NCBI GenBank assembly: GCA_048938025.1
Contig: JBHLMP010000052.1
Span: 1 to 24,489, forward strand
Direction of reading: 5' to 3'
DNA length: 24,489 nucleotides
Source: Promethearchaeota archaeon
GTDB taxonomy: Archaea > Asgardarchaeota > Lokiarchaeia > Sigyniarchaeales > SOKP01
Shown here one piece after another: positions 2,689 through 24,163 of the stretch. The notes under the pieces were generated by a model. It worked only from the letters and a program-made list of their open reading frames with translations, made no database searches and was not told the origin of the DNA. Each line of letters opens with the position of its first letter. Within the stretch, counting starts at the first letter, position 1. Position numbers and translations under genes: made by a program.

Positions 2689-2850
2689 TTATTCCTTGTC
2701 CTCTCCCATTATTTTAAAAATCCATCTTAATTTGCATTGACGGGAACAGAAAAATCGCTTTACTGGTTCTTGGCTTATATTAATATGGTAATATTCCTTA
2801 TTCCATTTATTATTCACGATGTTTTTTCCACAGTTTTCGCAATAAGGCAT
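2689..2850 (-). CDS. Small TRASH/MYM-type treble-clef zinc-finger protein (53 aa), paralog A; not in ORF track
   Basis: MPYCENCGKNIVNNKWNKEYYHINISQEPVKRFFCSRQCKLRWIFKIMGEDKE has CxxCG...FCSxxC and is clearly homologous to 8368-8520. Confidence 0.8.
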   Translation of the reverse strand: MPYCENCGKNIVNNKWNKEYYHINISQEPVKRFFCSRQCKLRWIFKIMGEDKE

Positions 2851-2913
2851 TATTCTTTTTCTCTCGTTGCTTAATCTCTTTAAATTATTCCATCATTAGT
2901 TGTATTGCGTTTA

Positions 2914-2935
2914 ATTACTCTAAGATGCTCATAGA
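2914..2935 (-). promoter_or_regulatory. Conserved 22-nt leader motif, copy A
   Basis: + strand ATTACTCTAAGATGCTCATAGA; same pattern and spacing at 8579-8600 and 23588-23609. Confidence 0.5.
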
Positions 2936-3002
2936 ATTATGATCTCAAATGGAGCTAATATGATTACTAATATCCTAACGATAATAACTTTTTTTATATA
3001 AT

Positions 3003-3079
3003 ATAAAAAATAGAAAATTAATTTGCCGCATCTGTCGAAGCTGTGCAGCGAGGTGTATCGGCTCAGTGAGAAATATGAA
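3003..3079 (+). pseudogene. rnhA fragment 1
   Basis: 67/77 nt identical to 10055-10131 of the intact rnhA. Encodes KK*KINLPHLSKLCSEVYRLSEKYE (TGG>TAG). Confidence 0.9.
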
Positions 3080-8367: not shown

Positions 8368-8520
8368 TCAATCTTCCATTACTCTAAAAATCCAGCTCAA
8401 CTTACATTTATCGGAACAAAATACTCTTTTTTCTGGTTGCTGACATATATTGATATGCTGATGTACCCTTCCCCATTTATTATTCCCGATGAATTTACCA
8501 CAGAATTCGCAAACCGTCAT
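8368..8520 (-). CDS. Small TRASH/MYM-type treble-clef zinc-finger protein (50 aa), paralog B; not in ORF track
   Basis: MTVCEFCGKFIGNNKWGRVHQHINICQQPEKRVFCSDKCKLSWIFRVMED; shares CExCGK, NNKW, HINI and FCSxxCKLxWIF with paralog A. Confidence 0.8.
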   Translation of the reverse strand: MTVCEFCGKFIGNNKWGRVHQHINICQQPEKRVFCSDKCKLSWIFRVMED

Positions 8521-8578
8521 TACTTCTCTTCTTGTCTATCCTCTTTAAATTCTTCTTTCTTTTACAGATTTAAGTTTA

Positions 8579-8600
8579 ATTACTCTATGTTGCTCATAGA
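8579..8600 (-). promoter_or_regulatory. Conserved 22-nt leader motif, copy B
   Basis: + strand ATTACTCTATGTTGCTCATAGA; coding-strand hairpin TCTATG-AGCAA-CATAGA. Confidence 0.5.
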
Positions 8601-8761
8601 ATAATGATTTATTTATACGTATTTTGTAGGCTTTTGAGTCCTTATATGTCCCCTTCTTAAAAATCCTGTTTATATTGAGAAAGATACAGGTCAAAATATT
8701 ACTCCATAAGTTAGAAAATAAGTTTTTGATTGCAACCAAAACTCAGAAAAAATAGACTTAC

Positions 8762-9789: not shown

Positions 9790-10224
9790 ATGAGTAAAAA
9801 TCCAATTAAAAAAGGGGATATCCTAAAAATTTATACCGACGGCGCTGCTCGTGGTAATCCCGGTCTGGCTGCCTGTGCTTTCTTATTTGTTCATAACGAT
9901 GAGGTTATCCATGAAGGCTGCAATTACATTGGAAGTGCGACAAACAACACCGCTGAATACCAAGCGATTATCAACGCGCTAAAGACGGCTGAAAGGTTCC
10001 ATAGAGGGCACTTACAAGTATACTCCGACAGCAACCTAGCCGTACAGCAAATTAATAAAAAATGGAAAATCAATAAGCCCCACCTGTCGAAGCTGTGTAG
10101 CGAGGTGTATCGACTCCGCGAGAAATATGAAAAGGTGGAGTTTTTCCATGTGGGAAGGGATAACCCCTACATCCAGAAGTGCGATACACTATGTAATGAG
10201 CGATTAGATGCGAAAGTCCCTTAA
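9790..10224 (+). CDS. rnhA: Ribonuclease HI (archaeal/actinobacterial type)
   Basis: YTDGAARGNPG, TNNTAEY, YSDSNL and CDTLCN contain the acidic catalytic residues. ATG at 9790 preferred (the 9700 start overlaps the upstream gene). About 46% GC over 9841-10200 (166/360 counted). Confidence 0.92.
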   Translation: MSKNPIKKGDILKIYTDGAARGNPGLAACAFLFVHNDEVIHEGCNYIGSATNNTAEYQAIINALKTAERFHRGHLQVYSDSNLAVQQINKKWKINKPHLSKLCSEVYRLREKYEKVEFFHVGRDNPYIQKCDTLCNERLDAKVP

Positions 10225-12823: not shown

Positions 12824-12889
12824 GTGTACCAGCTTCGCGAGAAATATGAAAAAGTGGAGTTTTTCCATGTCGGCAGGAGCAATCCTTAG
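12824..12889 (+). pseudogene. rnhA fragment 2
   Basis: VYQLREKYEKVEFFHVGRSNP*, aligning to 10105-10170 at 53/66 nt; 7 of 10 changed codons are synonymous. Confidence 0.9.
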
Positions 12890-12906
12890 ACCAATTTTTT
12901 TTTAAA

Positions 12907-12986
12907 AATAAATAAAGAAGTCTCAATTATGAAATCCATTAAGCTTGAAGGTTTTAACCTTATATCAAAAACCACTTATTATCAAA
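12907..12986 (+). repeat. 80-bp direct repeat, left copy
   Basis: 66/80 identical to 14639-14717; contains the palindrome AAGGTT-TT-AACCTT. Confidence 0.8.
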
Positions 12987-14576: not shown

Positions 14577-14638
14577 CTATTTTTGTTAAAATGTGTTCGT
14601 GCAATAGATTAAACAAACTAGTATATAAAAATTATGGA

Positions 14639-14717
14639 AATAAACAAAGAAATTTCATTTATAAAATACTTAAAACTTGAGGGTTCTAACCTTATTCAAA
14701 AACCGCTGATTATCAAA
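14639..14717 (+). repeat. 80-bp direct repeat, right copy (runs into rnhA fragment 3)
   Basis: Matches 12907-12986; its 3' end ACCGCTGATTATCAA corresponds to rnhA ACCGCTGAATACCAA. Confidence 0.8.
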
Positions 14718-14895
14718 CAACTATCGACGCGCTCAAGATGACTCAAAGGTTCCATAAGGGGCACCTATAAGTGTACTCCGACAACAACCTAGCCGTACAG
14801 CAAATCAATAAAAAATGAAAAATCAATTCCCCACACCTGTCGAAGCTGTTAGCGAAGTGTACCAACATCGCGAGAAATATGAAAAAGTGGAGTTT
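14702..14895 (+). pseudogene. rnhA fragment 3
   Basis: Colinear with 9949-10143 (TADYQTTIDALKMTQRFHKGHL*VYSDNNLAVQQINKK*KINSPHLSKL...EKYEKVEF); two stops and a 1-nt deletion. Confidence 0.92.
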
Positions 14896-15017
14896 CCCCC
14901 AAGAAAATTGAAAGATTTGAATTTTCTGAATAACGAGTTTTAGTTGATTTTTTATAAACAAAAATGTTATAAACTCCTATATAATTTAGATCTCAATCAT
15001 AAACAAGGTGTTAAAAA

Positions 15018-15653
15018 ATGTTTAAGAAATTTATGGATGCTTTAGGAATTACAAGCAATAAGATTAATGATTTAATTAAAGGAAGTAATCAATATATTAA
15101 TGCCGTAGAAAATGTCACGAAGGAAATTAAAAATACTGTTGCCACATTAAAAGGTTATGCTGAAACGGAGACTCCTTCCTTAGGGCAAGCAATAGGGTCA
15201 TTAGCTTCTACATTTGAAATTATTGACAAAGAAAGTACGGAAAAAGTCAAAAGACTCCGGGAAGAATATATTGTGCCGCTAAATGATCTTTTAATTAACC
15301 TAAAAAAACTCGAAACTGAACAGAATGAAGCTCAAAAGGCCTCGAAAGGATTAGAAAAAGCTGAAAAACATCTAAGTAAAGTCAAAAGCAAACCAAAAGA
15401 AAAATTAAAACCAAATGAAATACAAATAGCTGAAACAGAATTAACAACTGCGAAAGAAAAAGCTACTAAAGAAGAAAGCGATGTAAAAGTGGCAACCGAG
15501 GAATTTAATAAAGTAAAATTAGAAACTATGCAAAAAGTCCTTAAAAATATGGTAGATATAGAAACTATTTTTCATAAAAAGATTCTTGATTCCGTAGCAA
15601 CTGTAAAAGTAAAAGCTGAAGCTATTAAGATTGACGAAGAATCAAAAATTTAA
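15018..15653 (+). CDS. BAR-domain protein, FAM92/CIBAR-like (eukaryotic signature protein)
   Basis: All-helical 211 aa. YAETETPSL, RLREEYIVPL, IAETEL, EEFNKVKL and IETIFHKKIL match FAM92-family BAR motifs in order (recalled from memory, not searched). Confidence 0.75.
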   Translation: MFKKFMDALGITSNKINDLIKGSNQYINAVENVTKEIKNTVATLKGYAETETPSLGQAIGSLASTFEIIDKESTEKVKRLREEYIVPLNDLLINLKKLETEQNEAQKASKGLEKAEKHLSKVKSKPKEKLKPNEIQIAETELTTAKEKATKEESDVKVATEEFNKVKLETMQKVLKNMVDIETIFHKKILDSVATVKVKAEAIKIDEESKI

Positions 15654-15735: not shown

Positions 15736-16311
15736 ATGATGAAAGCGTTATTATTGAATGGATTTTCAGGTAATGATTCTGATGTTGAAATAATTCAACT
15801 CATAGTCGAAGAACTTAAAAAAAATGGATTTGAGGTAGAACAAATCGTATTAAGAGATGTTAATGTTGCAGCTTGTCAAGGTTGTTTTGATTGTTGGGTA
15901 ATAAGTCCTGGAGAATGTAGAACAGATGACTATGGTCGGGAAGTTGCCAAAAAAATGGTTCAAAGTAGTCTCATCATTCATTTCACGCCAATCACATTTG
16001 GAGGATATTCCTCTGATCTAAAAAAAGTAATAGATAGATTTATACCGACAATATTACCATTCTTTACAAAAAGACATGGAGAAACTCATCATGCCTATCG
16101 CTATGAAAATAGGGGCTCGATTATTGCTATAGGCATTTTAGACAAACCAGATGAAGAAAAAGAATCGATATTTAAAGAATTAGTTTACCGTAATTCACTT
16201 AATATGGGGGCACCTGTTCATGAAGCAATTATATATATAAAAAATCAAAGTAAAACCGATTTTATAAATGAATTTGCTACAATTTTAAAGAAAGTGGAGG
16301 GAAAAACATGA
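15736..16311 (+). CDS. Flavodoxin family protein (Fe-S flavoprotein-like)
   Basis: CQGCFDCWVISPGEC and TPITFGGYSSDLKKVIDR motifs. Confidence 0.85.
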   Translation: MMKALLLNGFSGNDSDVEIIQLIVEELKKNGFEVEQIVLRDVNVAACQGCFDCWVISPGECRTDDYGREVAKKMVQSSLIIHFTPITFGGYSSDLKKVIDRFIPTILPFFTKRHGETHHAYRYENRGSIIAIGILDKPDEEKESIFKELVYRNSLNMGAPVHEAIIYIKNQSKTDFINEFATILKKVEGKT

Positions 16312-16988
16312 TGAATAATAAAAAAGCACTTCTTTTAATCGGTAGCCCAAGAGTCGAAAAAAGTACCTCATTATCTCTTGGAAATTATTTGATCTCAAAA
16401 TTAGAGGAATCTGGGATGACATCTGAAAGAGGATTTATCCACCAAATGGTAAATCGAGAAGAAAAAATAAAAGAACTCTTTGAAATGATTGATAATGCAG
16501 ATTTAATAATTCTCTCATTCCCTTTATATGTAGATAGCTTGCCAGCTCCCGTGATTAAAGCAATGGAATTAATCAAAAAAGAAAGAGACAAATCAGAAAA
16601 GAAAAAAACTCAAGATTTTATTGCGATATGCAATAATGGTTTCCCTGAAGCGTCTCAAAATATGATAGCACTTCAGATTTGTAAAATTTTCTCCAAAGAT
16701 TGTGGTTTTGTATGGAAAGGTGGAATTGCCATCGGTGGAGGTGGTGCAATTAACGGAATTCCCTTAAAAGAAAGAGGAGGTATGGTAAGACACATCATCA
16801 ATGGATTAGATATAGCAGCTAACGCATTGAAGGATGGTAAAGAAGTCCCTCAAGATGTTATTGACCTAATATCAAAACAGTTTATACCATCTGGTCTCTA
16901 TAGAACTGTTGGGAATTTTGGGTGGAGACGCCAAACTCGAAAATATGGTGCAAGAAAGAAAATAAAAGACAAACCTTATTCTAATTGA
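16308..16988 (+). CDS. NAD(P)H-dependent FMN-reductase/flavodoxin-fold protein, translationally coupled to the upstream gene
   Basis: GSPR...STS, FPLYVDSLP and NNGFPE motifs; ATGA overlap with the previous gene. Confidence 0.85.
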   Translation: MMNNKKALLLIGSPRVEKSTSLSLGNYLISKLEESGMTSERGFIHQMVNREEKIKELFEMIDNADLIILSFPLYVDSLPAPVIKAMELIKKERDKSEKKKTQDFIAICNNGFPEASQNMIALQICKIFSKDCGFVWKGGIAIGGGGAINGIPLKERGGMVRHIINGLDIAANALKDGKEVPQDVIDLISKQFIPSGLYRTVGNFGWRRQTRKYGARKKIKDKPYSN

Positions 16989-17054: not shown

Positions 17055-20000
17055 CTATATCTTTCGCTCTCTGGAAGGTATTAATATCCGTTTCTCAATA
17101 AGATTTTCAAGAGCATCTATTATTATATCTTGATTTTTTTCATAAACGTTTCTTATAGCATTTTCTAAATAAAATTCTTCTTGTTCGCTTGTCTTAGTTA
17201 TAGAGATAATTACATTGAGAAGTCGTAATTCCATTTTAGATAACTGTTTTTCTTTTTTAAGGTCATTAATATTTTTATTTCTGTTTAATTTAAATGGATC
17301 TCTATAATATGATTCAAAATATTGATCTAAAAGAGGAGGCATAAGTTTATTAAATCTTTTTAACTCACCATTCCAATTTTCATATTTGTCAGAAAAAGAT
17401 GAATCAATTTCCATTAGTAGTTTTACTGTTTGATCTTTAAATCTCTCAGATGCTTTTTCTTTTAAAATGAAAATTAATCGTATCGCCTTATAATCACTAA
17501 TCATGAAATTGAAATGTTTGAAGTCTAATTCGATAATTTGTTCAATACCTTCTGGAGATTTTGATTTAATCGAAATTCTATTTGATTCTTCTTTATCTAC
17601 AATCTGGGTACCCATCATTATAATTGCTTGAGAAAAACTTGAGAGTAAATCATCTTCATATTCTTGTAAGAAATTATAATCTTTTGAATAAAAATTTATT
17701 CCACTAAATCGATTTGAAAGAATTATTGCTTCTATATTCATAATATCTTTATAACGCTGAGTTTTTGCAAATAGAGCAGATTCCTTTTTCCTTTTTGATG
17801 GTAGAATTACATAGCTCCTTAACGTTAAAATTCCTAATATACTCATACCAATCAAACCTGCTGATATAACAAACCAAATTACATAATTCGGTCGCTCTCT
17901 CGCTTTAATTGAAATAATAAAAGAAAATTCTTTTGGTTCATAAATTGAACCTTCTTTTGAAATAAGTAACGTCATTATATGACTTCCTGGGATGGTTCCA
18001 GATAATTTTAGCTCTAATTCATAGGTTCCATTACCAATGTAATCAAAATATCCTTTTCCAAATTCCCAAGTGTAGAATATAGATGCATTTTCAATATAGA
18101 GTTCAGTTCCATTTTCTGTTAAATTAATCTTTATCATGATCGTGTCTCCAACAAAAGCACCTATAGAATCGTCAAAATCGATTGTATTAACCTTAATCTT
18201 AATACGACTAATTGTTATTATTATACTTTTGTAAGCTGTTTCAAATCCTGGTTTCTCTAATTTAATTATTGGTGTATAAGTCTCTATAGAAAGATTAACA
18301 GTATCAAGGTGTACAACAAACCCTTGACTATCAGACATTATATTGTATACACTCGGCCAATCAACACTACAATTAGCTCCAAGAATCAAAAATTCTGAAC
18401 CCTCCTCAGTATAATTAACTTTAACATCGACTGATTCACCCAAATTAACGACAAAAATTGACTGATTCACCCCTATACTTGTTTGTATCGGGTGAACGGT
18501 TAAAGTTATAAAGCAAGTAGTATTTCCATAAAAAATTTTGCTTGCGAAAACTGTAACGGTATAAGTCTCAATAATCCCCTGAGCTGGAAGTTCCCACGTT
18601 GAAAAGTTAAGTGTGAACGTACCATTATAATGATCTATAACTGTATAATTTTGCCAATCAGTACTCAAATTTGCAGGCCAAATTGGAATATCGGATATAG
18701 CTCCTGTAAGATTCACTTGAAATATAGCATAATTATTACCCATTGCATTAATAACTGTATTAGGTCCTTCTAATTTTAAGGGTTCGCTGAGAATTTTCAA
18801 ATGAATTAGATTAATTTTTGTTTGATTTTGATAAAATGTTTTAGTAGCATTAAATGAAAAATAATAATCCCCTAACTCTAAAGAACTAGTGTCCATATCA
18901 ATAAAATAAATTCCACCCCCAAGGTAAACCATAGTTCCAGATTGCCCAAATGTTGAATTATAAGTAATCGTGGCAATTTCAATTGAAGAATTGAAATCTA
19001 AATCTGTAAATTTTACTTTAATTAAAGCAGGTTCTCCTGAAATTTTTTCTAGATGTGAATCTACTGCACTCAGATTCGTGTGGTGCCATACCATAAAATT
19101 GAGTTCATCATACCCCACTTTATCTCTCATTAAATAATTCTCGTTATTTGTCCATATTATTATGATTTTATAAATTCCCACCGACATATTATAACCAACT
19201 GTAAAGGTGCCGAAATTTACATCATGAGCAGTAGGCTCTTTACTTTCATGATAGAGTATTGAATTGTCAGGGTAATATATAGTAAAATTTATTTTAGTGT
19301 TGCTTAGAGAAAGTGAGTTATTAAGAGTAACATTCACTTTATAAATATCGCTAAATGTTAATTTTGTATCTTCTATAAATTGCGAATTGTTCCAAATAAG
19401 AAAATTAGTTTTACAAATACAATTTTGACTTATAGCTTTAAGTTTCCATAGCCCAAATCCGAAGATATTAGATGGAATTATCAAACTTTCAGAACCAAAT
19501 CCCGCTCCTGTGCAATTTGCAACATGATTAATATCATATAGATCTGTGACCTCCTGTATTATCCAATCTGCAGGTTTTTTTATTAATCCCCAACTATTAA
19601 AATATCCAAAAGGAATAGACACTATAAATTCAGAATTCCAAGTTATGTTTAAACCCATGGAATAAGAACATCCTTCTAAATGAAATATTGTTGAATTGTA
19701 TAATTTTACCACATCTGATTCAATAGTAATGTTATTAATAGCAGAATCGAGAGCTCCTGTTACATTGTTATAAATTGTAAAGACTACATCTTGAGTGAGA
19801 TTACGCGACCTGTCAATTTGTATGAACGAATACCCCGATCCATATGATGTATTCGTATAAGTATAATTAGCTGGAAATTCAACATCATAGGCGTAAACTA
19901 AATTTTTAGCATTAGGCATGGTCCAGAGATCCAATTTAATATTATCAAACGATATATAAGCAGGCTGTCCTGTAATAAGAAAAGTGGTATCTGTATAAAG

Positions 20001-20765
20001 TCCAACCCTAACAGTCATAATTCCCGGCGAGATTTGTCCATATGCTTTCGGATCATAAATCATATTAAGTGACTGCCACGAATCCTGTGCGATATAGCTA
20101 TCATCATAGGTTATGTTCTTTTCAATATCGCCAATGATCACTGCTAAATAAACATTGACCCCCGTAGGCAGGTATCCCGTATAATAATAATTTGTTGATA
20201 ATACAGTAGTTCTTCCAGAAGCCAATTCATCATTTAAGGTTATATTTTGTTCGTAATATCCAAAATCACCTTCAAAACTTGTTACTCCAGAAGTTAGTTT
20301 CATCTTTACATCTCCAGGAGGATTTCCTTCAGCTGATTGCCATCCATTGTTTACATATTTAGTAGGAACATTGCTCTTATAAGTCCACCCGTCAGCATTT
20401 GAAAGAAAATCACCATTGGAAATACTCTGATTCTTTATTGAGACCCCTTCATATCTAATCGTCACATTTTTCGAGATCCAATCCTTATAAAGAGGGAAAC
20501 TGACATTAGTAGGTAAAGTTTTATCCAAAAAACTATTAGAAGCTTTAGAAATGTGTTCAATTAATAATGGTTTACCATTTGGTTCATTTGAACTTAATTT
20601 AGGTTTACATAATTCATTACATTCATTAAATTGGTCAATTTCACTCTTTTTTTTAACGTCTGAGTTATCATTAAAAATTGGATTGAGATTAAAAGATAAA
20701 ATTTGATTTAAGAAAATTAAGAATAATAAAAGAACTACTTTTTGTTTTTTATTTTTTCTGATAAT
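17055..20765 (-). CDS. Large single-pass surface protein (~1236 aa) with a putative cytoplasmic longin-like domain
   Basis: The frame is open 79 codons upstream of the TTG at 20528, to ATT/ATC at 20765/20762, giving a signal peptide IIRKNKKQKVVLLLFLIFLNQILSF. Ectodomain is beta-rich with many N-x-S/T sequons. TM helix YVIWFVISAGLIGMSILGILTL precedes a ~245-aa cytoplasmic tail. Confidence 0.8.
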   Translation of the reverse strand: MIRKNKKQKVVLLLFLIFLNQILSFNLNPIFNDNSDVKKKSEIDQFNECNELCKPKLSSNEPNGKPLLIEHISKASNSFLDKTLPTNVSFPLYKDWISKNVTIRYEGVSIKNQSISNGDFLSNADGWTYKSNVPTKYVNNGWQSAEGNPPGDVKMKLTSGVTSFEGDFGYYEQNITLNDELASGRTTVLSTNYYYTGYLPTGVNVYLAVIIGDIEKNITYDDSYIAQDSWQSLNMIYDPKAYGQISPGIMTVRVGLYTDTTFLITGQPAYISFDNIKLDLWTMPNAKNLVYAYDVEFPANYTYTNTSYGSGYSFIQIDRSRNLTQDVVFTIYNNVTGALDSAINNITIESDVVKLYNSTIFHLEGCSYSMGLNITWNSEFIVSIPFGYFNSWGLIKKPADWIIQEVTDLYDINHVANCTGAGFGSESLIIPSNIFGFGLWKLKAISQNCICKTNFLIWNNSQFIEDTKLTFSDIYKVNVTLNNSLSLSNTKINFTIYYPDNSILYHESKEPTAHDVNFGTFTVGYNMSVGIYKIIIIWTNNENYLMRDKVGYDELNFMVWHHTNLSAVDSHLEKISGEPALIKVKFTDLDFNSSIEIATITYNSTFGQSGTMVYLGGGIYFIDMDTSSLELGDYYFSFNATKTFYQNQTKINLIHLKILSEPLKLEGPNTVINAMGNNYAIFQVNLTGAISDIPIWPANLSTDWQNYTVIDHYNGTFTLNFSTWELPAQGIIETYTVTVFASKIFYGNTTCFITLTVHPIQTSIGVNQSIFVVNLGESVDVKVNYTEEGSEFLILGANCSVDWPSVYNIMSDSQGFVVHLDTVNLSIETYTPIIKLEKPGFETAYKSIIITISRIKIKVNTIDFDDSIGAFVGDTIMIKINLTENGTELYIENASIFYTWEFGKGYFDYIGNGTYELELKLSGTIPGSHIMTLLISKEGSIYEPKEFSFIISIKARERPNYVIWFVISAGLIGMSILGILTLRSYVILPSKRKKESALFAKTQRYKDIMNIEAIILSNRFSGINFYSKDYNFLQEYEDDLLSSFSQAIIMMGTQIVDKEESNRISIKSKSPEGIEQIIELDFKHFNFMISDYKAIRLIFILKEKASERFKDQTVKLLMEIDSSFSDKYENWNGELKRFNKLMPPLLDQYFESYYRDPFKLNRNKNINDLKKEKQLSKMELRLLNVIISITKTSEQEEFYLENAIRNVYEKNQDIIIDALENLIEKRILIPSRERKI

Positions 20766-21036
20766 TTAACACACCATCTCTATTTTAGTCAAGTAAATCC
20801 TTAGCAACTGTGAGAAAAGACTTTCTGACAATGAAATATTTTAGAAATGAACCACTATATTACCCTTAACATGTCCAATTCGAGATAAATACTCCTATCC
20901 TTTTATTGTCAATTTAAATATTTAATGAAAAAACGGATTTTTAAATGTATAGGTTTAAGGAAAGTTATCCCCACCTATAATATTAACTTCAAATCGTTAG
21001 TAATCGATTTTTATTGATGAGATAATTTTACTTAAA

Positions 21037-21816
21037 CTATAAAGTGTTTTGTATAAGTTTGTGTAAAAAATAACCTATACCTAAATAACTAATTTCTATT
21101 GATTTTTCCTTTTTATCATCAGGATTAGGATAAAGGTTAACCGCAGAAATTTTTTCTAATTTTTGAATGAATCCATTTATAGCACCCCGCGATATAGTAG
21201 AATTTCGTCTTGTTTCCAATGCTTCTTTGATATCTTCTAAAGAACCATACTTTTTCCGATTGGTTAATAATGGATTCTCATTGAAAGATAAATTTGATTG
21301 AAAAAATTTGGTATAGACTTGATAATCACCAAAAAAAAGCTCTAAAAATTCAAATTGCTTCTCTGTTAAAGATGGAAATGGAACGGTGATTAATTCTATG
21401 TTAGAGTATATCCCCACTTCTTCATTCTTCTCATAAATAAAATCTCCATGAATGATACGAGTATTCGTAATGGAACATGCACTATAAAACCAAATATCCA
21501 TATACCGTAATCCTCCCGAGATATTTACTATGATATTATCAAATCCGTTGAGTTTTTGTTGGTAAATAAGATGAATTAATTCTGCAATGGGTTTTGTTTG
21601 GATGTGAAAATCGAATTTCGCATTCTCAACCTCAACCCGCCGTTCTTTATAATACCTATTTAACTCATCCAATACTTTTATAGCTTCAAGTGTTCCTGGA
21701 AGTGGTTGTCGCTCAGTTATGAAAATCACTTTATGAACGACTTCTTTATCAATGGAAAATATCAATTTTGAAGATGTATGCCCCACTAAAATAAGTTGAC
21801 AATACTTTTCAATCAT
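21037..21816 (-). CDS. CARF-domain + winged-helix protein (Csa3/DUF6293-like transcriptional regulator)
   Basis: N-terminal strand LILVGHT, CARF motif IIVNISGGLRYM, linker PFPSLTEKQ, C-terminal ISRGAINGFIQKLEK...IEISYLG wHTH-like segment. Confidence 0.75.
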   Translation of the reverse strand: MIEKYCQLILVGHTSSKLIFSIDKEVVHKVIFITERQPLPGTLEAIKVLDELNRYYKERRVEVENAKFDFHIQTKPIAELIHLIYQQKLNGFDNIIVNISGGLRYMDIWFYSACSITNTRIIHGDFIYEKNEEVGIYSNIELITVPFPSLTEKQFEFLELFFGDYQVYTKFFQSNLSFNENPLLTNRKKYGSLEDIKEALETRRNSTISRGAINGFIQKLEKISAVNLYPNPDDKKEKSIEISYLGIGYFLHKLIQNTL

Positions 21817-21916
21817 TTCGAATCTTCCTATATTACTAATTACATTACAAATTAATAAATTAGTTCTTTGTTTATAGTCAAAATTACTTCTCTATAAATA
21901 TATATATTATTTAGAA

Positions 21917-21967
21917 TACATGATCACAAAAAGATATATAAATGAAGACAGTTATTATGATCATGTA
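21917..21967. promoter_or_regulatory. BRE/TATA-like element flanked by a 10-bp inverted repeat (candidate operator)
   Basis: TACATGATCA (21917-26) and TGATCATGTA (21958-67) enclose AAAAAGA-TATATAAA (TATA at 21935-42). Confidence 0.55.
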
Positions 21968-21987
21968 ATTTTTAATTTTTCATATGG

Positions 21988-22157
21988 GGAAGAGAAAAAA
22001 ATAGGGTGAAAACCATGACCTCTCACTACCAAAAGGCAACCTTACTTTAGAAGGGGTATCCCTAATTGTGGGAGACTCCTTTTTCACCCTAGGGGGAGGG
22101 AGTTAGAGACTCATGGCTGATCTCAAGCCTATGCTTGCCCTATTTTCATTTCTTTCC
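21988..22157. ncRNA. Candidate structured ncRNA or cis-regulatory RNA (strand unresolved)
   Basis: About 45% GC (76/170) in AT-rich intergenic DNA, with nested helices plus an alternative perfect 11-bp helix (22002-12/22081-91). Confidence 0.55.
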
Positions 22158-22272
22158 TAATAACATCTACAAAAATATGGTGATAAAAAAAATGGGGAGC
22201 GCATTTGGTATAGTAGCAATAATTTTTGGTTCGATTAGAATGGAATTGATTAAAAAAGAAAGAGACAAATTA

Positions 22273-22782
22273 TCACTTATGAGGAATTATAACAAAATAA
22301 GAACCGCTTTCAACATTCTTACGGAGTTTCATTAAACTAATACCTAATCCATAACAAAAAAGTTTCTCATTAGGAATAATTTTTATAAAAACTGCTTCTT
22401 CTTCCTTATTACTTACTTGTTTTAAATTCATTTTTAGAATCTTAAGGCCAGTTTTAAATGATTCTTGAGCCTCTTTATCATTAAAAGGTACGATTTGTGC
22501 GATGCCTTGGAATTGAACACAAGATGCAGGAGCAAACCTTAAAATATGATGAGGAAAAGGTATTACAAATGAAACAGAATTGTTAACTTCTATATTTTTA
22601 ACCTTCTTATAATTTCTATCTGTTAGGATATATAAAGTAAATTCTAAATTAGAAGGAGCTACTCCATATACAATTCCAGTGGAATGAGAATGACCGTTTT
22701 GATCAATTGTGCTAATTATTCCAAATGATTTCTTTCTAATTTCCCTCTCAACAAAATCAAATGTTAAATCTCTTTTAACCAT
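22273..22782 (-). CDS. Pyridoxamine 5'-phosphate oxidase-like (split-barrel flavin-binding) protein
   Basis: FGIISTIDQNGHSHS, YILTDRNYKKVKNIEVNNSVSF and VQFQGIAQIV patterns. Confidence 0.85.
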   Translation of the reverse strand: MVKRDLTFDFVEREIRKKSFGIISTIDQNGHSHSTGIVYGVAPSNLEFTLYILTDRNYKKVKNIEVNNSVSFVIPFPHHILRFAPASCVQFQGIAQIVPFNDKEAQESFKTGLKILKMNLKQVSNKEEEAVFIKIIPNEKLFCYGLGISLMKLRKNVESGSYFVIIPHK

Positions 22783-23006: not shown

Positions 23007-23549
23007 TTACCTAACAAGAACTTCAGTTTTCTTGATTCCATTTCCATTTAACATTATCCTTGTTAATAGATCAAAGGATTTTGAAACATTCTCACCAGTT
23101 TTGCTGGAACATTCAAAAAATTCGTTCAGATCCATCATTTTAGCAACTCTCTGTCCTTCTCTGTAGGTGATTTCTCTATACTCATCTAAATCAGATTTAG
23201 CACCAAGTAAAATAATTGGAAATTTTTGGGTCGTTCCATTTATTACTGATAACCAATCACTAATATGAGAAAAAGAACTGTAATCTGTTATATCATACAT
23301 TAAAACCCCACCCATAGCACCATAAATATACTGAGGAAATATGAAACGAAATCGTTCCTCACCCGCAAAGTCCCAGATCATTAACTTTATTACCAGACCA
23401 TCCATTTTTAAAACTTTAGTATCAAAATCCACCCCAATTGTCTTACTCGAATCTGAGATAAATATATTTGTCATGAATCTCTTTCTTAATGTGGTCTTAC
23501 CACAACCAGCATCTCCGAAAATAACTACTTTGAAAAGTACATCATACAT
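23007..23549 (-). CDS. Rab-like small GTPase (Ras superfamily, Asgard type)
   Basis: G1 GDAGCGKT, G2 TIGVDF, G3 WDFAGEE, G4 GAKSD, G5 SSK; no C-terminal Cys for prenylation. Confidence 0.92.
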   Translation of the reverse strand: MYDVLFKVVIFGDAGCGKTTLRKRFMTNIFISDSSKTIGVDFDTKVLKMDGLVIKLMIWDFAGEERFRFIFPQYIYGAMGGVLMYDITDYSSFSHISDWLSVINGTTQKFPIILLGAKSDLDEYREITYREGQRVAKMMDLNEFFECSSKTGENVSKSFDLLTRIMLNGNGIKKTEVLVR

Positions 23550-23944: not shown

Positions 23945-24069
23945 TAAACTATAAATTGTTTTGTATAAGTTTATGTAGAAAATATCCAATACCTAAATAA
24001 CTTATTTTGATTGATTTTTCTTTTTTATCATCAAGATTAGGATAAAGGTTAATCGCAGAAATTTTTTCT
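23945..24069 (-). pseudogene. 3'-terminal fragment of a second CARF-wHTH gene copy
   Basis: Ungapped match to 21033-21157 with 11 differences (7 synonymous); EKISAINLYPNLDDKKEKSIKISYLGIGYFLHKLIQNNL*. Confidence 0.9.
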
Positions 24070-24163
24070 CTAGAAACCAAAGAATATAATATGATGAACA
24101 TTATTATACCAAGTAGTAAGAAACAGTTATTCGATAAAAAAATTCACATTTTGAGTTGTTATT

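Follow-up and report, generated by a model that had tools for sequence, protein, structure and literature searches.

Genes and signals at the locus

The window, that is, the whole stretch of DNA analysed here, comprises 24,489 nucleotides of contig JBHLMP010000052.1 (assembly GCA_048938025.1) of a Promethearchaeota archaeon. Within it, a G+C-rich element lies between a regulator gene on the minus strand and a truncated membrane-protein gene on the plus strand. The genes and candidate control signals are as follows.

21037..21816, minus strand: Csa3-like CARF regulator gene, 259 aa, with a CARF N-terminal domain and a probable C-terminal winged helix
21920..21927, plus strand: palindrome-like box 1, ATGATCAC, a candidate operator half that directly precedes the BRE/TATA-like motif
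21928..21943, plus strand: A-rich BRE-like run and TATA-like box, AAAAAGATATATAAAT; putative plus-strand promoter
21957..21964, plus strand: palindrome box 2, ATGATCAT, a candidate operator lying after the TATA-like box and before the presumed start
22179-22184, plus strand: Shine-Dalgarno sequence GGTGAT, preceding the truncated small membrane-protein ORF
within 22179..22335, plus strand: truncated ORF of 47 aa (ATG at 22192) with homology to a small membrane protein

The presence of a CARF gene, claimed in an earlier note on this DNA, is borne out by a match to the PADLOC model CARF3--CARF over residues 5-159 (E 4.1e-19). Further PADLOC matches are CasR (3.7e-7) and Csa3 (1.5e-5), and the Pfam families HFX_2341_N (4.4e-5) and Csa3_N (4.2e-4) are matched below their curated cut-offs. 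The C-terminal part has a weak MarR match (residues 207-237, E 0.018), also below the curated cut-off. Homologues of the regulator occur in 21 of the 154 genomes of the order. The Cas10 models (Csm1 or Cmr2; TIGR02578, TIGR02577) gave no match each in the genome of the window (G000, 96.7% complete); in control genomes they registered in 6 and 5 of 14, respectively.

The downstream ORF is homologous to an intact membrane gene of 104 aa, and this homology stops near 22237. A 32-nt repeat at 22239-22270 matches 16562-16593 at 94%. Intact genes of 101-104 aa are present in G030, G063 and G004. The membrane-protein family is found in 47 of 135 genomes, and none of the five other loci of the family that we tested has the element beside it. 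A neighbouring protein of 1157 aa is matched by no Pfam or PADLOC model, and its gene does not adjoin the element in G030, G004, G063 or G018; the CARF gene is the sole gene conserved together with the RNA.

Composition, copy number and distribution of the element

The G+C content reaches 0.47-0.49 at 22000-22149 vs 0.17-0.20 at 21800-21999 (wider background 0.17-0.30), so the tract earlier described as about 45% GC is indeed an island. Of the 135 genomes of its family (Promethearchaeia), 6 contain the element, and all six belong to one genus; together with copies on metagenome contigs, there are eight distinct sequences. The Csa3-like CARF gene lies about 170 nt away in every case. Around the six genome copies the neighbourhoods differ, and the start of the CARF gene stays constant at this distance. 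The 3.52-Mb genome has one copy, and each of the five others has one strong copy. The element has terminal inverted repeats, yet it is not a MITE, because it is single-copy. Two weaker matches of a covariance model of the element, at E 0.015 per genome in G071 and 0.05 in G090, were rejected as having chance-like alignments; a search of G071 for the CARF gene found none. Viral contigs searched with a 23-base conserved pattern yielded no match.

The earlier description of the RNA as undescribed agrees with the database searches. Against Rfam 15, the whole window gave no match at gathering thresholds, and at permissive thresholds the best six matches were at chance level (E 0.51-7; 14-22 bits vs cut-offs of 37-50). 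No C/D, H/ACA, SRP or RNase P match was found with Rfam, and ARAGORN reported no tRNA or tmRNA. With regard to retrons and guide RNAs, no reverse transcriptase or RNA-guided nuclease both adjoins the RNA and is conserved with it. Our literature search found no paper on the element.

The conserved fold

The helices and conserved blocks of the element, all on the plus strand, are listed below.

21988..21994: 5' strand of P1a, GGAAGAG, pairing with 22150-22156 (7 pairs)
21998..22006: 5' strand of P1b, AAAATAGGG, pairing with 22138-22146 (9 pairs)
22013..22018: 5' strand of P2, CCATGA, pairing with TCATGG at 22111-22116; contains the start codon of a micro-ORF
22027..22039: near-invariant block TACCAAAAGGCAA, one position G/A, mostly unpaired in the folds
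22051..22081: P3 hairpin (AAGGGG-TATCCC ... GGGAGA-CTCCTT), the strongest-supported hairpin
22091..22100: conserved G-rich block, AGGGGGAGGG here; group 2 and class B have AAGGGTGGGG
22117..22123: conserved junction CTGATCT (consensus NTGATCT); columns 134-139 nearly invariant
22124..22137: P5 hairpin CAAGC-CTAT-GCTTG (5 pairs)
22138..22156: 3' strands of P1b and P1a (CCCTATTTT CAT TTCTTTC), U-rich

The minimum free energy (MFE) fold of the window supplies the P2 and P5 pairings. Much of the fold first proposed for the window is recovered: its terminal helix is seen as a 20-nt inverted repeat (21987-22006 / 22138-22157, 80% complementary), and both the CCATGA/TCATGG pairing and the CAAGC-CTAT-GCTTG hairpin occur in the MFE fold. 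The AAAAGG/CCTTTT helix, supposed to close two hairpins, is absent from the MFE fold and from all eight homologues; in these, AAGGG(G) at 22051-22056 is the partner of CUCCUU/CCCUU, which gives a single long hairpin spanning 22051-22081.

The conserved helices are P1, P3 and P5, with compensatory changes in P3 and P5. In P1a, 96.4% of cells are paired across the eight sequences, with 14 G·U and no A·C; in P1b the figure is 93.1%, and seven pairs are invariant. P3 forms at the same place in all eight variants (-11.0 to -20.1 kcal/mol). In its upper stem both sides have changed, for example A-U/C-G, U-A/A-U/G-C and C-G/U-A, with 8 G·U and no A·C; since its register differs from variant to variant owing to a bulge, P3 was tabulated sequence by sequence rather than in a single-register alignment for pair counting. 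In P5, 97.5% of cells are paired, and the closing pair is C-G in four variants and U-A in the other four. P2 is less regular: 79.2% of its cells are paired, it is formed and invariant in the four group-1 variants, and the same register is broken in the four of group 2, where MFE folds offer UGUYNC with GGGGCA as an alternative. The junction reads TAATCT in G063.

Taken over the alignment, 89.6% of 288 cells are paired vs 41-58% with the partners slid. Cells changed on both sides number 15 vs 6.6±2.0 in shuffles, and none of 500 shuffles reaches 15; since the eight sequences fall in two tight groups and are not independent, most of this covariation rests on one deep split. The fold also scores better than chance on both strands, with z-scores in the window of -2.95 on plus (1 of 200 shuffles as good) and -2.64 on minus (0 of 200), and ranges over the eight variants of -1.9 to -5.0 and -1.2 to -3.7, respectively. 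Element identity is 0.67-0.71 between the two groups vs 0.45-0.52 at CARF third codon positions, and 0.88 vs 0.57 inside group 2. The idea of a structured element is upheld by helices kept across eight variants and by folding better than chance in the window; the conserved fold, with covariation in P3 and P5 and a P2 whose register varies, is defined by eight sequences in two groups.

Known motifs were also considered and set aside. Inspection by eye led us to reject GGGTGAAAA together with CTGATCT as a K-turn or C/D-like motif: the key G is variable (G, C or A), as is the C of CTGA. The motifs of a hammerhead-like core (CUGAUGA/GAAA) do not occur and Rfam has no such match, and the conserved ACA of H/ACA RNAs is missing after the terminal helix.

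Probable strand, putative promoter and candidate operators

Which strand carries the RNA is suggested by three features: the G·U pairs, the upstream BRE/TATA-like motif and the co-oriented downstream gene, all of which favour plus. Taken together, P1a, P1b, P3 and P5 contain 23 G·U vs 0 A·C on this strand. RNAalifold energies are equal between strands (-45.6 vs -45.0), and the group-2 z-scores on minus equal or better those on plus.

A BRE/TATA-like motif stands 100-133 nt upstream of the CARF ATG in 14 of 17 CARF loci. It is followed by an ATG-initiated ORF that begins 51-72 nt downstream in ten loci and 111 nt downstream in G095. By general archaeal promoter geometry, the plus-strand transcript would start near 21965; the direction of the promoter can only be inferred, because the TATA-like box is nearly symmetric. 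The first box, ATGATCAC, is found in the class-A or class-B-type upstream regions of G000, G018, G148, G004, G030 and G121a, and as ATGACCAT in that of G063. The second, ATGATCAT, is unchanged in five of six aligned class-A sequences and is GTGATCAT in G063. Paralogous cassettes have ATCAC-N3-GTGAT-type palindromes at the matching position. The suggestion that the CARF regulator controls the element fits these palindromes, with binding as a prediction; since the palindrome-flanked promoter diverges from the regulator gene, the regulator most likely controls the RNA.

A proposed leader RNA in the cargo transcript

What can be stated as observed is the conservation, structure and single copy of the element, its linkage to the CARF gene, and the homology of its 5' half to the start of a decayed signal-peptide gene in sister cassettes. 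The explanation that we prefer, and that we consider an even call, is a lineage-restricted, conserved and structured plus-strand RNA domain under the control of the regulator, most likely a cis leader in the cargo transcript; strand, promoter, regulator control and the cis role of the RNA are the interpreted parts of it. Transcription would begin at the BRE/TATA-like promoter (21928-21943) and point away from the Csa3-like CARF/winged-helix gene, whose product may bind the ATGATCA-type palindromes around the promoter and so control the transcript. The RNA domain would be closed by P1, a two-part helix of 16 bp, inside which would lie the long hairpin P3, the short hairpin P5, the less certain P2 and near-invariant unpaired joints. 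The cargo transcript would have this RNA as its 5' part and, in intact cassettes, would extend into the small membrane-protein gene of about 104 aa. The leader may act in cis on stability, on 3'-end formation at the U-rich strand or on read-through into the membrane gene. The U-rich 3' strand of P1, which includes a T6 run in group 2, is a possible archaeal termination signal.

Evidence against a leader dedicated to the membrane gene is that the element persists without an intact membrane gene (absent in G018, truncated in the window) and that the family is widespread without the element. Nor does the ribosome-binding site of the membrane gene appear to be hidden in structure: its mean unpaired probability is 0.36-0.67. 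We also tried to pair the 3' strand of P1b with the sequence in front of the Shine-Dalgarno site and rejected this, since the duplex energies are no better than those of shuffles in all seven variants (fraction of shuffles at least as good, 0.09-0.87). We detected no expression platform of the riboswitch kind, in which a conserved alternative pairing would conceal a ribosome-binding site or create a terminator.

Alternative explanations

The strongest competitor is a stand-alone sRNA controlled by the regulator, about 190 nt long and with its end at its own U-rich 3' strand. Such an sRNA would either work in trans or bind a protein, and the real cargo of the cassette would be the RNA and not the membrane protein. 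Retention of the RNA where the membrane gene is missing or truncated speaks for it, as do the near-invariant unpaired blocks between variable helices, the 3'-terminal T6 run of group 2 and the absence of any hint of an expression platform. However, no target was found: genomic sites complementary to the most conserved block show no excess, with 11 vs 23 for a reversed-pattern control. In addition, a co-oriented transmembrane gene starts within about 35 nt downstream in seven of eight variants. We regard this sRNA as possible but doubtful.

A bolder proposal, which we rate as unlikely, is that an orphan Asgard CARF cassette has the RNA as its effector; induced by the regulator, the RNA would sense or transmit a nucleotide signal or arrest growth. 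In this effector proposal, and at the same low level of confidence, the 5' UTR and signal-peptide codons of a protein gene would have turned into the G+C-rich folded domain.

Descent from a protein gene is also the basis of a simpler explanation, that the element is a functionless remnant, namely the 5' end of a signal-peptide protein gene that once stood behind the divergent promoter of the regulator. The 5' half can be aligned with decayed ORFs that occupy the same position in the sister cassettes G134, G121a and G005b; the common motifs are GATAGGGCGAAA, AAAAGRCAA (the part of the TACCAAAAGGCAA block shared with class-B sequences) and TAAAGGGTGGGGCA; and the only other notable matches of the covariance model are two sister cassettes (E 5.1e-4 and 9.2e-4 per genome). 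A mere remnant is nevertheless very improbable in view of conservation far above third-codon-position identity, the compensatory changes in P3 and P5, and a G+C content of 0.47-0.49 where class-B sequences are A+T-rich.

The earlier note proposed a two-state switch, in which the terminal helix alternates with a second helix that masks or exposes a ribosome-binding site.

22081..22091, plus strand: 3' arm of the second helix (fold 2), TTTTCACCCTA, complementary to 22002-22012

The 11-bp helix is present and perfect in the window (22002-22012 / 22081-22091), and in M020 a G-C to A-U double change keeps it, with fold 2 only 1.7 kcal/mol above fold 1. Two mutually exclusive folds are therefore possible for the window sequence, but they are not a conserved property. 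The helix is well formed only in three of eight variants, which are close relatives; it is lost in G018 by deletion of CCCT, has only 4-5 bp in the four group-2 variants and an uncompensated C·C in G063, and shows gaps in 19 of 88 cells. The pair-counting tool scores no pair of this helix as changed on both sides, and its observed score is reached by 306 of 500 shuffles. When forced, fold 2 is worse by 7.1 to 14.7 kcal/mol in seven of eight variants. The Shine-Dalgarno-like GGTGA to be masked is itself altered to GGTCA, GGTAA or GGCGA in six of eight. We do not think that the RNA works as a switch, and give the idea little chance.

Equally remote, in our view, is a structured RNA or attenuator on the minus strand that runs in the direction of the CARF gene and stops upstream of it at the U7 tract. 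The A7/T7 tract can be read directly in the window, the T7 run immediately follows the structure on minus, that strand also folds well, and the orientation is that of the CARF gene. On the other hand, the 23 G·U pairs would turn into A·C mismatches, and the promoter motif and the downstream gene favour plus. The hairpin of fold 2 is good in only three of eight variants, and the U run is down to T5 in M020 and G004. The stretch 22160-22200, which is upstream on minus, has not been retained in G018, and a conserved minus-strand promoter is therefore lacking there. The A-run is accounted for by its pairing with the U-rich 3' strand of P1. Archaeal termination, for its part, needs no hairpin.

Two micro-ORFs pointed out earlier are likewise readable in the window.

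22015..22050, plus strand: micro-ORF MTSHYQKATLL*, probably vestigial

The second has a start codon in only four of eight variants (group 1), and its G063 copy stops after six codons. A type I toxin mRNA does not agree with this, or with a first ORF that is not hydrophobic, has a variable stop and lacks periodicity. That the first encodes a true peptide product (M-T/S-x-H-Y-Q-K-A...) is the least credible possibility: its ATG is kept in all eight variants, at the point where sister cassettes start genes, and the first eight codons are alike, but the stop moves (11, 17, 24, 24, 24, 25, 31 and 33 codons), variable columns show no codon periodicity (10/8/9 of 17 each at positions 1/2/3), non-synonymous exceed synonymous codon differences in six of six group-2 pairs, and TAC CAA AAG is invariant at third positions as well, which points to constraint at the nucleotide level.

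Comparison with known systems

Csa3 proteins are described as factors that combine CARF and winged-helix domains and are thought to be controlled by cyclic oligoadenylates (PMC8699464, PMC8844856). For HFX_2341, repression of cas and other genes is reported, and species that lack CRISPR-Cas also have homologues (PMC11434293). The neighbour of the element is like such regulators in its CARF-type N-terminal domain and in the palindromes around a divergent promoter. It is unlike them in that the apparent target is a structured RNA and a small membrane protein rather than cas genes, and it differs from the Csa3 context in that Cas10 was not found in the genome, with ligand and DNA binding being predictions here.

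The element resembles structured 5' leaders and riboswitches in its compensated helices, near-invariant unpaired blocks and position upstream of a co-oriented gene. Unlike the known ones, it has no Rfam match and no detected expression platform, and unlike typical leaders it is tied to one cassette lineage and not to the membrane-protein family at large.

CreT-type small RNA toxins belong to CRISPR-regulated toxin-antitoxin pairs, and are controlled by Cascade with a crRNA-like antitoxin. The element is similar in having a ribosome-binding-like site, a start codon and then a stable hairpin in a CRISPR-related regulatory context. It differs in that it lacks tandem rare codons and a cas operon, and CRISPR-like repeats are missing from the window; its control would lie with the CARF regulator.

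G+C-rich islands mark non-coding RNAs in A+T-rich archaeal genomes. The present island stands out from its background in the same way, but, unlike the usual RNAs of such islands, it matches no tRNA, C/D, H/ACA, SRP or RNase P. To our knowledge, very few Asgard non-coding RNAs besides the universal ones have been described.

Significance for Asgard archaea

The restriction to one genus limits the present weight of the finding. If the element is expressed, a CARF-type regulator would here be linked to a lineage-specific structured RNA, in a genome without detected Cas10, and this would offer a way into what orphan CARF regulators control outside CRISPR systems. If the effector proposal were true, the RNA would be the first family of functional non-coding RNAs restricted to Asgard archaea and a case of a coding 5' end that has become an RNA gene. 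The apparent descent of the 5' half from the start of a protein gene makes the element a good case for the origin of structured RNAs.

A structured element beside the CARF regulator

The window is one of the 88 contigs (C70) of a 3.52-Mb genome. Its features discussed here are the following.

Features of the window
2702-3079, 8372-8608, 9946-10169, 12824-12970 and 14638-14921: direct repeats
15018-15653, plus strand: FAM92/BAR-like protein, weak match (E 5.6e-8)
16308-16988: flavodoxin-like ORF
17055-20528, minus strand: 1157-aa ORF adjoining the CARF gene, with no Pfam or PADLOC match; elsewhere not beside the element
21037-21816, minus strand: Csa3-like CARF regulator gene
21988-22160: the element
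22192-22335: small membrane-protein gene, broken
23007-23549, minus strand: Ras-family small GTPase (E 1.1e-45)
23945-24069: second copy of the CARF gene 3' end (91% DNA identity to 21033-21157); 23949-24101, minus strand, has 85% protein identity to CARF residues 219-259

The Ras-family GTPase and the FAM92/BAR-like protein are of the eukaryote-like kind known from Asgard archaea, the GTPase being expected there. The direct-repeat families (65-160 nt, 63-87% identical, e.g., GTGTATCGACTCCGCGAGAAATATGAAAAGGTGGAG...) lie between genes and may represent either a gene start present several times or a small mobile element. The CARF 3' copy seems to be the remnant of a further CARF cassette, at a distance of 2.9 kb.

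The element is a G+C island, with a G+C content of 0.47 (22000-22099) and 0.49 (22050-22149) vs 0.17-0.20 in 21800-21999. Its plus strand folds at -59.3 kcal/mol (z -2.95; matched by 1 of 200 shuffles), and the minus strand is almost equal (z -2.64). The terminal inverted repeat described in the earlier note was recovered by a repeat tool (21987-22006/22138-22157, 20 nt, 80% complementary), and the plus-strand minimum-free-energy (MFE) fold contains this terminal helix, CCATGA/TCATGG and the hairpin CAAGC-CTAT-GCTTG. The proposed AAAAGG/CCTTTT helix closing two hairpins is absent from that fold, which has a single long central hairpin at 22051-22081 instead.

Distribution and novelty

No Rfam family matched the window at gathering thresholds, a permissive search gave chance-level matches only (E 0.51-7), and ARAGORN found no tRNA or tmRNA. 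A literature search found nothing on this RNA among the papers listed. The element is single-copy in its own 3.52-Mb genome, so a MITE is ruled out.

A DNA search of 61 related genomes gave matches in 10 at E <= 0.01, the window's own included; only three others were full length (G018, G005 and G030, at 81%, 71% and 70% identity), the remainder being 22-32-nt stretches. Within the genus, a covariance model detected the element in 6 of 54 genomes, and a refined model run on 135 genomes of the family returned the same six strong matches (E <= 1.8e-34), all from one genus, and four weak ones. An exact-pattern scan added six metagenome and five genome-contig stretches, with none among viral contigs. 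Element-bearing contigs belong to Promethearchaeota or Promethearchaeia MAGs. Removal of duplicates left eight distinct sequences in two groups: group 1 (G000, the window's own genome, with G063, M020 and G018) and group 2 (G030, G005, G004 and M024), M020 and M024 being metagenome variants.

Identity between groups is 0.67-0.71 for the element, compared with 0.45-0.52 for the neighbouring CARF gene at third codon positions; a pair from within group 2, G004 and G030, gives 0.88 and 0.57. This excess argues that the element is under purifying selection and excludes a freely decaying remnant.

Structure across the eight variants

All eight variants beat dinucleotide shuffles in folding (z -1.9 to -5.0 on the plus strand, -1.2 to -3.7 on the minus strand). 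They were aligned to a model with the proposed helices P1a, P1b, P2, P3 and P5 (36 pairs). Standard pairs occupy 89.6% of the 288 cells vs 41-58% after a shift of the 3' partners by 1-3 columns; changes on both sides occur in 15 cells vs 6.6±2.0 in shuffles (0 of 500 as high), and the covariation score is 0.171 vs 0.110 (reached by 0 of 500), all counts from related sequences in an alignment fitted to the structure.

P1a and P1b are 96% and 93% paired and vary little. The closing pair of P5 is C-G in four variants and U-A in the other four. The P3 hairpin stands at the same place in all eight (-11.0 to -20.1 kcal/mol), with both-side changes at several positions of its upper stem (A-U/C-G, U-A/A-U/G-C, C-G/U-A); the counting tool understates it, as variants differ in register on account of a bulge. 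All group-1 variants share an unchanged P2 (CCATGA/TCATGG). In group 2 the P2 pairing is disrupted in this register; a 9-nt deletion lies there, and UGUYNC can pair with GGGGCA instead. Between the helices lie the near-invariant unpaired blocks GAAAAC, TACCAAAAGRCAA and NTGATCT. We regard the element as a genuine structured RNA, conserved and narrowly distributed, that had not been described before.

The proposed switch and micro-ORFs

The earlier note had envisaged two mutually exclusive folds. The 11-bp helix of the second was recovered by the repeat tool (22002-22012/22081-22091) and is perfect in the window; a double change from G-C to A-U preserves it in M020. The helix carries an uncompensated C·C in G063, has lost CCCT in G018 and retains 4-5 bp in the four group-2 variants. 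The counting tool scores none of its pairs as changed on both sides; 306 of 500 shuffles reach its observed score, with gaps in 19 of 88 cells. When fold 2 is forced, it lies 7.1-14.7 kcal/mol above fold 1 in seven variants and 1.7 above it in M020. By these measures fold 2 is not a conserved second state, though in one sub-branch it might serve as a folding intermediate.

Neither of the two micro-ORFs behaves like coding sequence in the comparison. The first has its ATG in all eight variants and stops after 11, 17, 24, 24, 24, 25, 31 or 33 codons; its variable columns fall at codon positions 1/2/3 as 10/8/9, non-synonymous exceed synonymous codon differences in all six group-2 pairs, TAC CAA AAG is invariant including third positions, and the Shine-Dalgarno-like GGTGA is altered in 6/8 variants. 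The second has an ATG in group 1 only (4/8) and stops after six codons in G063.

Candidate promoter and operator, and strand

A search of 154 genomes from the order found CARF protein homologues in 21, and all CARF-gene homologues with enough flank (17 loci) were compared. A motif, AAAAAAGTAT[AT]TAAA, is common to 14 of them, lying 100-133 nt upstream of where the CARF gene starts. In sister cassettes a divergent protein gene starts 51-57 nt past the motif; in element-bearing cassettes a conserved ATG lies 65-72 nt past it. Read away from the CARF gene, the motif resembles a BRE, rich in A, and next to it a TATA box, so that transcription would begin near 21965; we only infer this direction, because the TATA-like box is nearly symmetric. 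ATGATCA-type palindromes on both sides of the box (21920-27 and 21957-64) are the probable operator of the CARF regulator. At four loci (L039 in G065, L040 in G073, L045 in G070 and L043 in G095), further sister regulators stand head-to-head with unrelated protein genes, which lie behind this promoter motif together with an ATCAC-N3-GTGAT palindrome; by eye, the G070 cargo resembles an HD-nuclease start.

Three lines (base pairs, promoter and downstream gene) favour the plus strand as most likely, and count against the minus-strand attenuator suggested earlier. The four helices contain 23 G·U pairs, which would be mismatches on the minus strand, and no A·C mismatches, a count in which the P3 share comes from MFE folds, where A·C is impossible, and P1a's 14 G·U are fixed alignment columns. 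The two strands have equal consensus-fold energies (-45.6 and -45.0), which counts against a clear call.

Origin of the element

In three sister cassettes (L035 in G134, L037 in G121 and L018 on a second contig of G005), a decayed small ORF for a signal-peptide protein occupies the element's position past the shared promoter. It reads MKYYSKKAIFFYIGLILILGTIFILPKGWG... in G005 and has lost its start codon in G134 and G121, the downstream frame in G134 (…ADKDTYVDAANAMSNHGGVNNLMTG…) still being open. Three blocks, GATAGGGCGAAA, AAAAGRCAA and TAAAGGGTGGGGCA, recur in the element with corresponding spacing, and two of these ORFs are the covariance model's best non-member matches (E 5.1e-4 and 9.2e-4 per genome). 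The 5' half of the element thus appears to derive from a protein gene, namely from its 5' untranslated region and the codons for its signal peptide, the hydrophobic core of which would have been replaced by the G+C-rich hairpin P3, presumably in that direction.

The CARF regulator, the membrane gene and function

As the earlier note supposed, the neighbour is a CARF gene, and no other gene is linked to the element in every case. Its product matches PADLOC CARF3--CARF (E 4.1e-19) and, weakly and below Pfam cut-offs, Csa3_N, HFX_2341_N and MarR. The Haloferax namesake HFX_2341 is reported to be a repressor of cas and other genes (PMC11434293). Two NCBIfam models found no Cas10 in the present genome, so the regulator looks orphan here.

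A co-oriented small membrane-protein gene lies downstream of the element in 7/8 variants, intact (101-104 aa) in G030, G063 and G004. In the window it is broken after ~15 codons, homology ending near 22237; the break adjoins a 32-nt repeat (94%) of 16562-16593, inside the flavodoxin-like ORF, which suggests rearrangement. A search for an expression platform found none: the ribosome-binding site of the gene is not masked (mean unpaired probability 0.36-0.67), and its alternative pairing with the P1b 3' strand is no better than in shuffles. The membrane-protein family often occurs where the element does not (family in 47/135 genomes; element at 0/5 other loci tested), and the element persists without the gene (G018) or with a truncated one (window).

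The main rival, a stand-alone small RNA, seems rather unlikely; the P1 3' strand, which is U-rich and holds a T6 run in group-2 variants, could provide an RNA 3' end. As to function, we infer from these comparisons that the element is most likely on the plus strand and under control of the CARF regulator, and there is about an even chance that it serves as a structured leader of the transcript for the cassette's cargo, controlled by the regulator.
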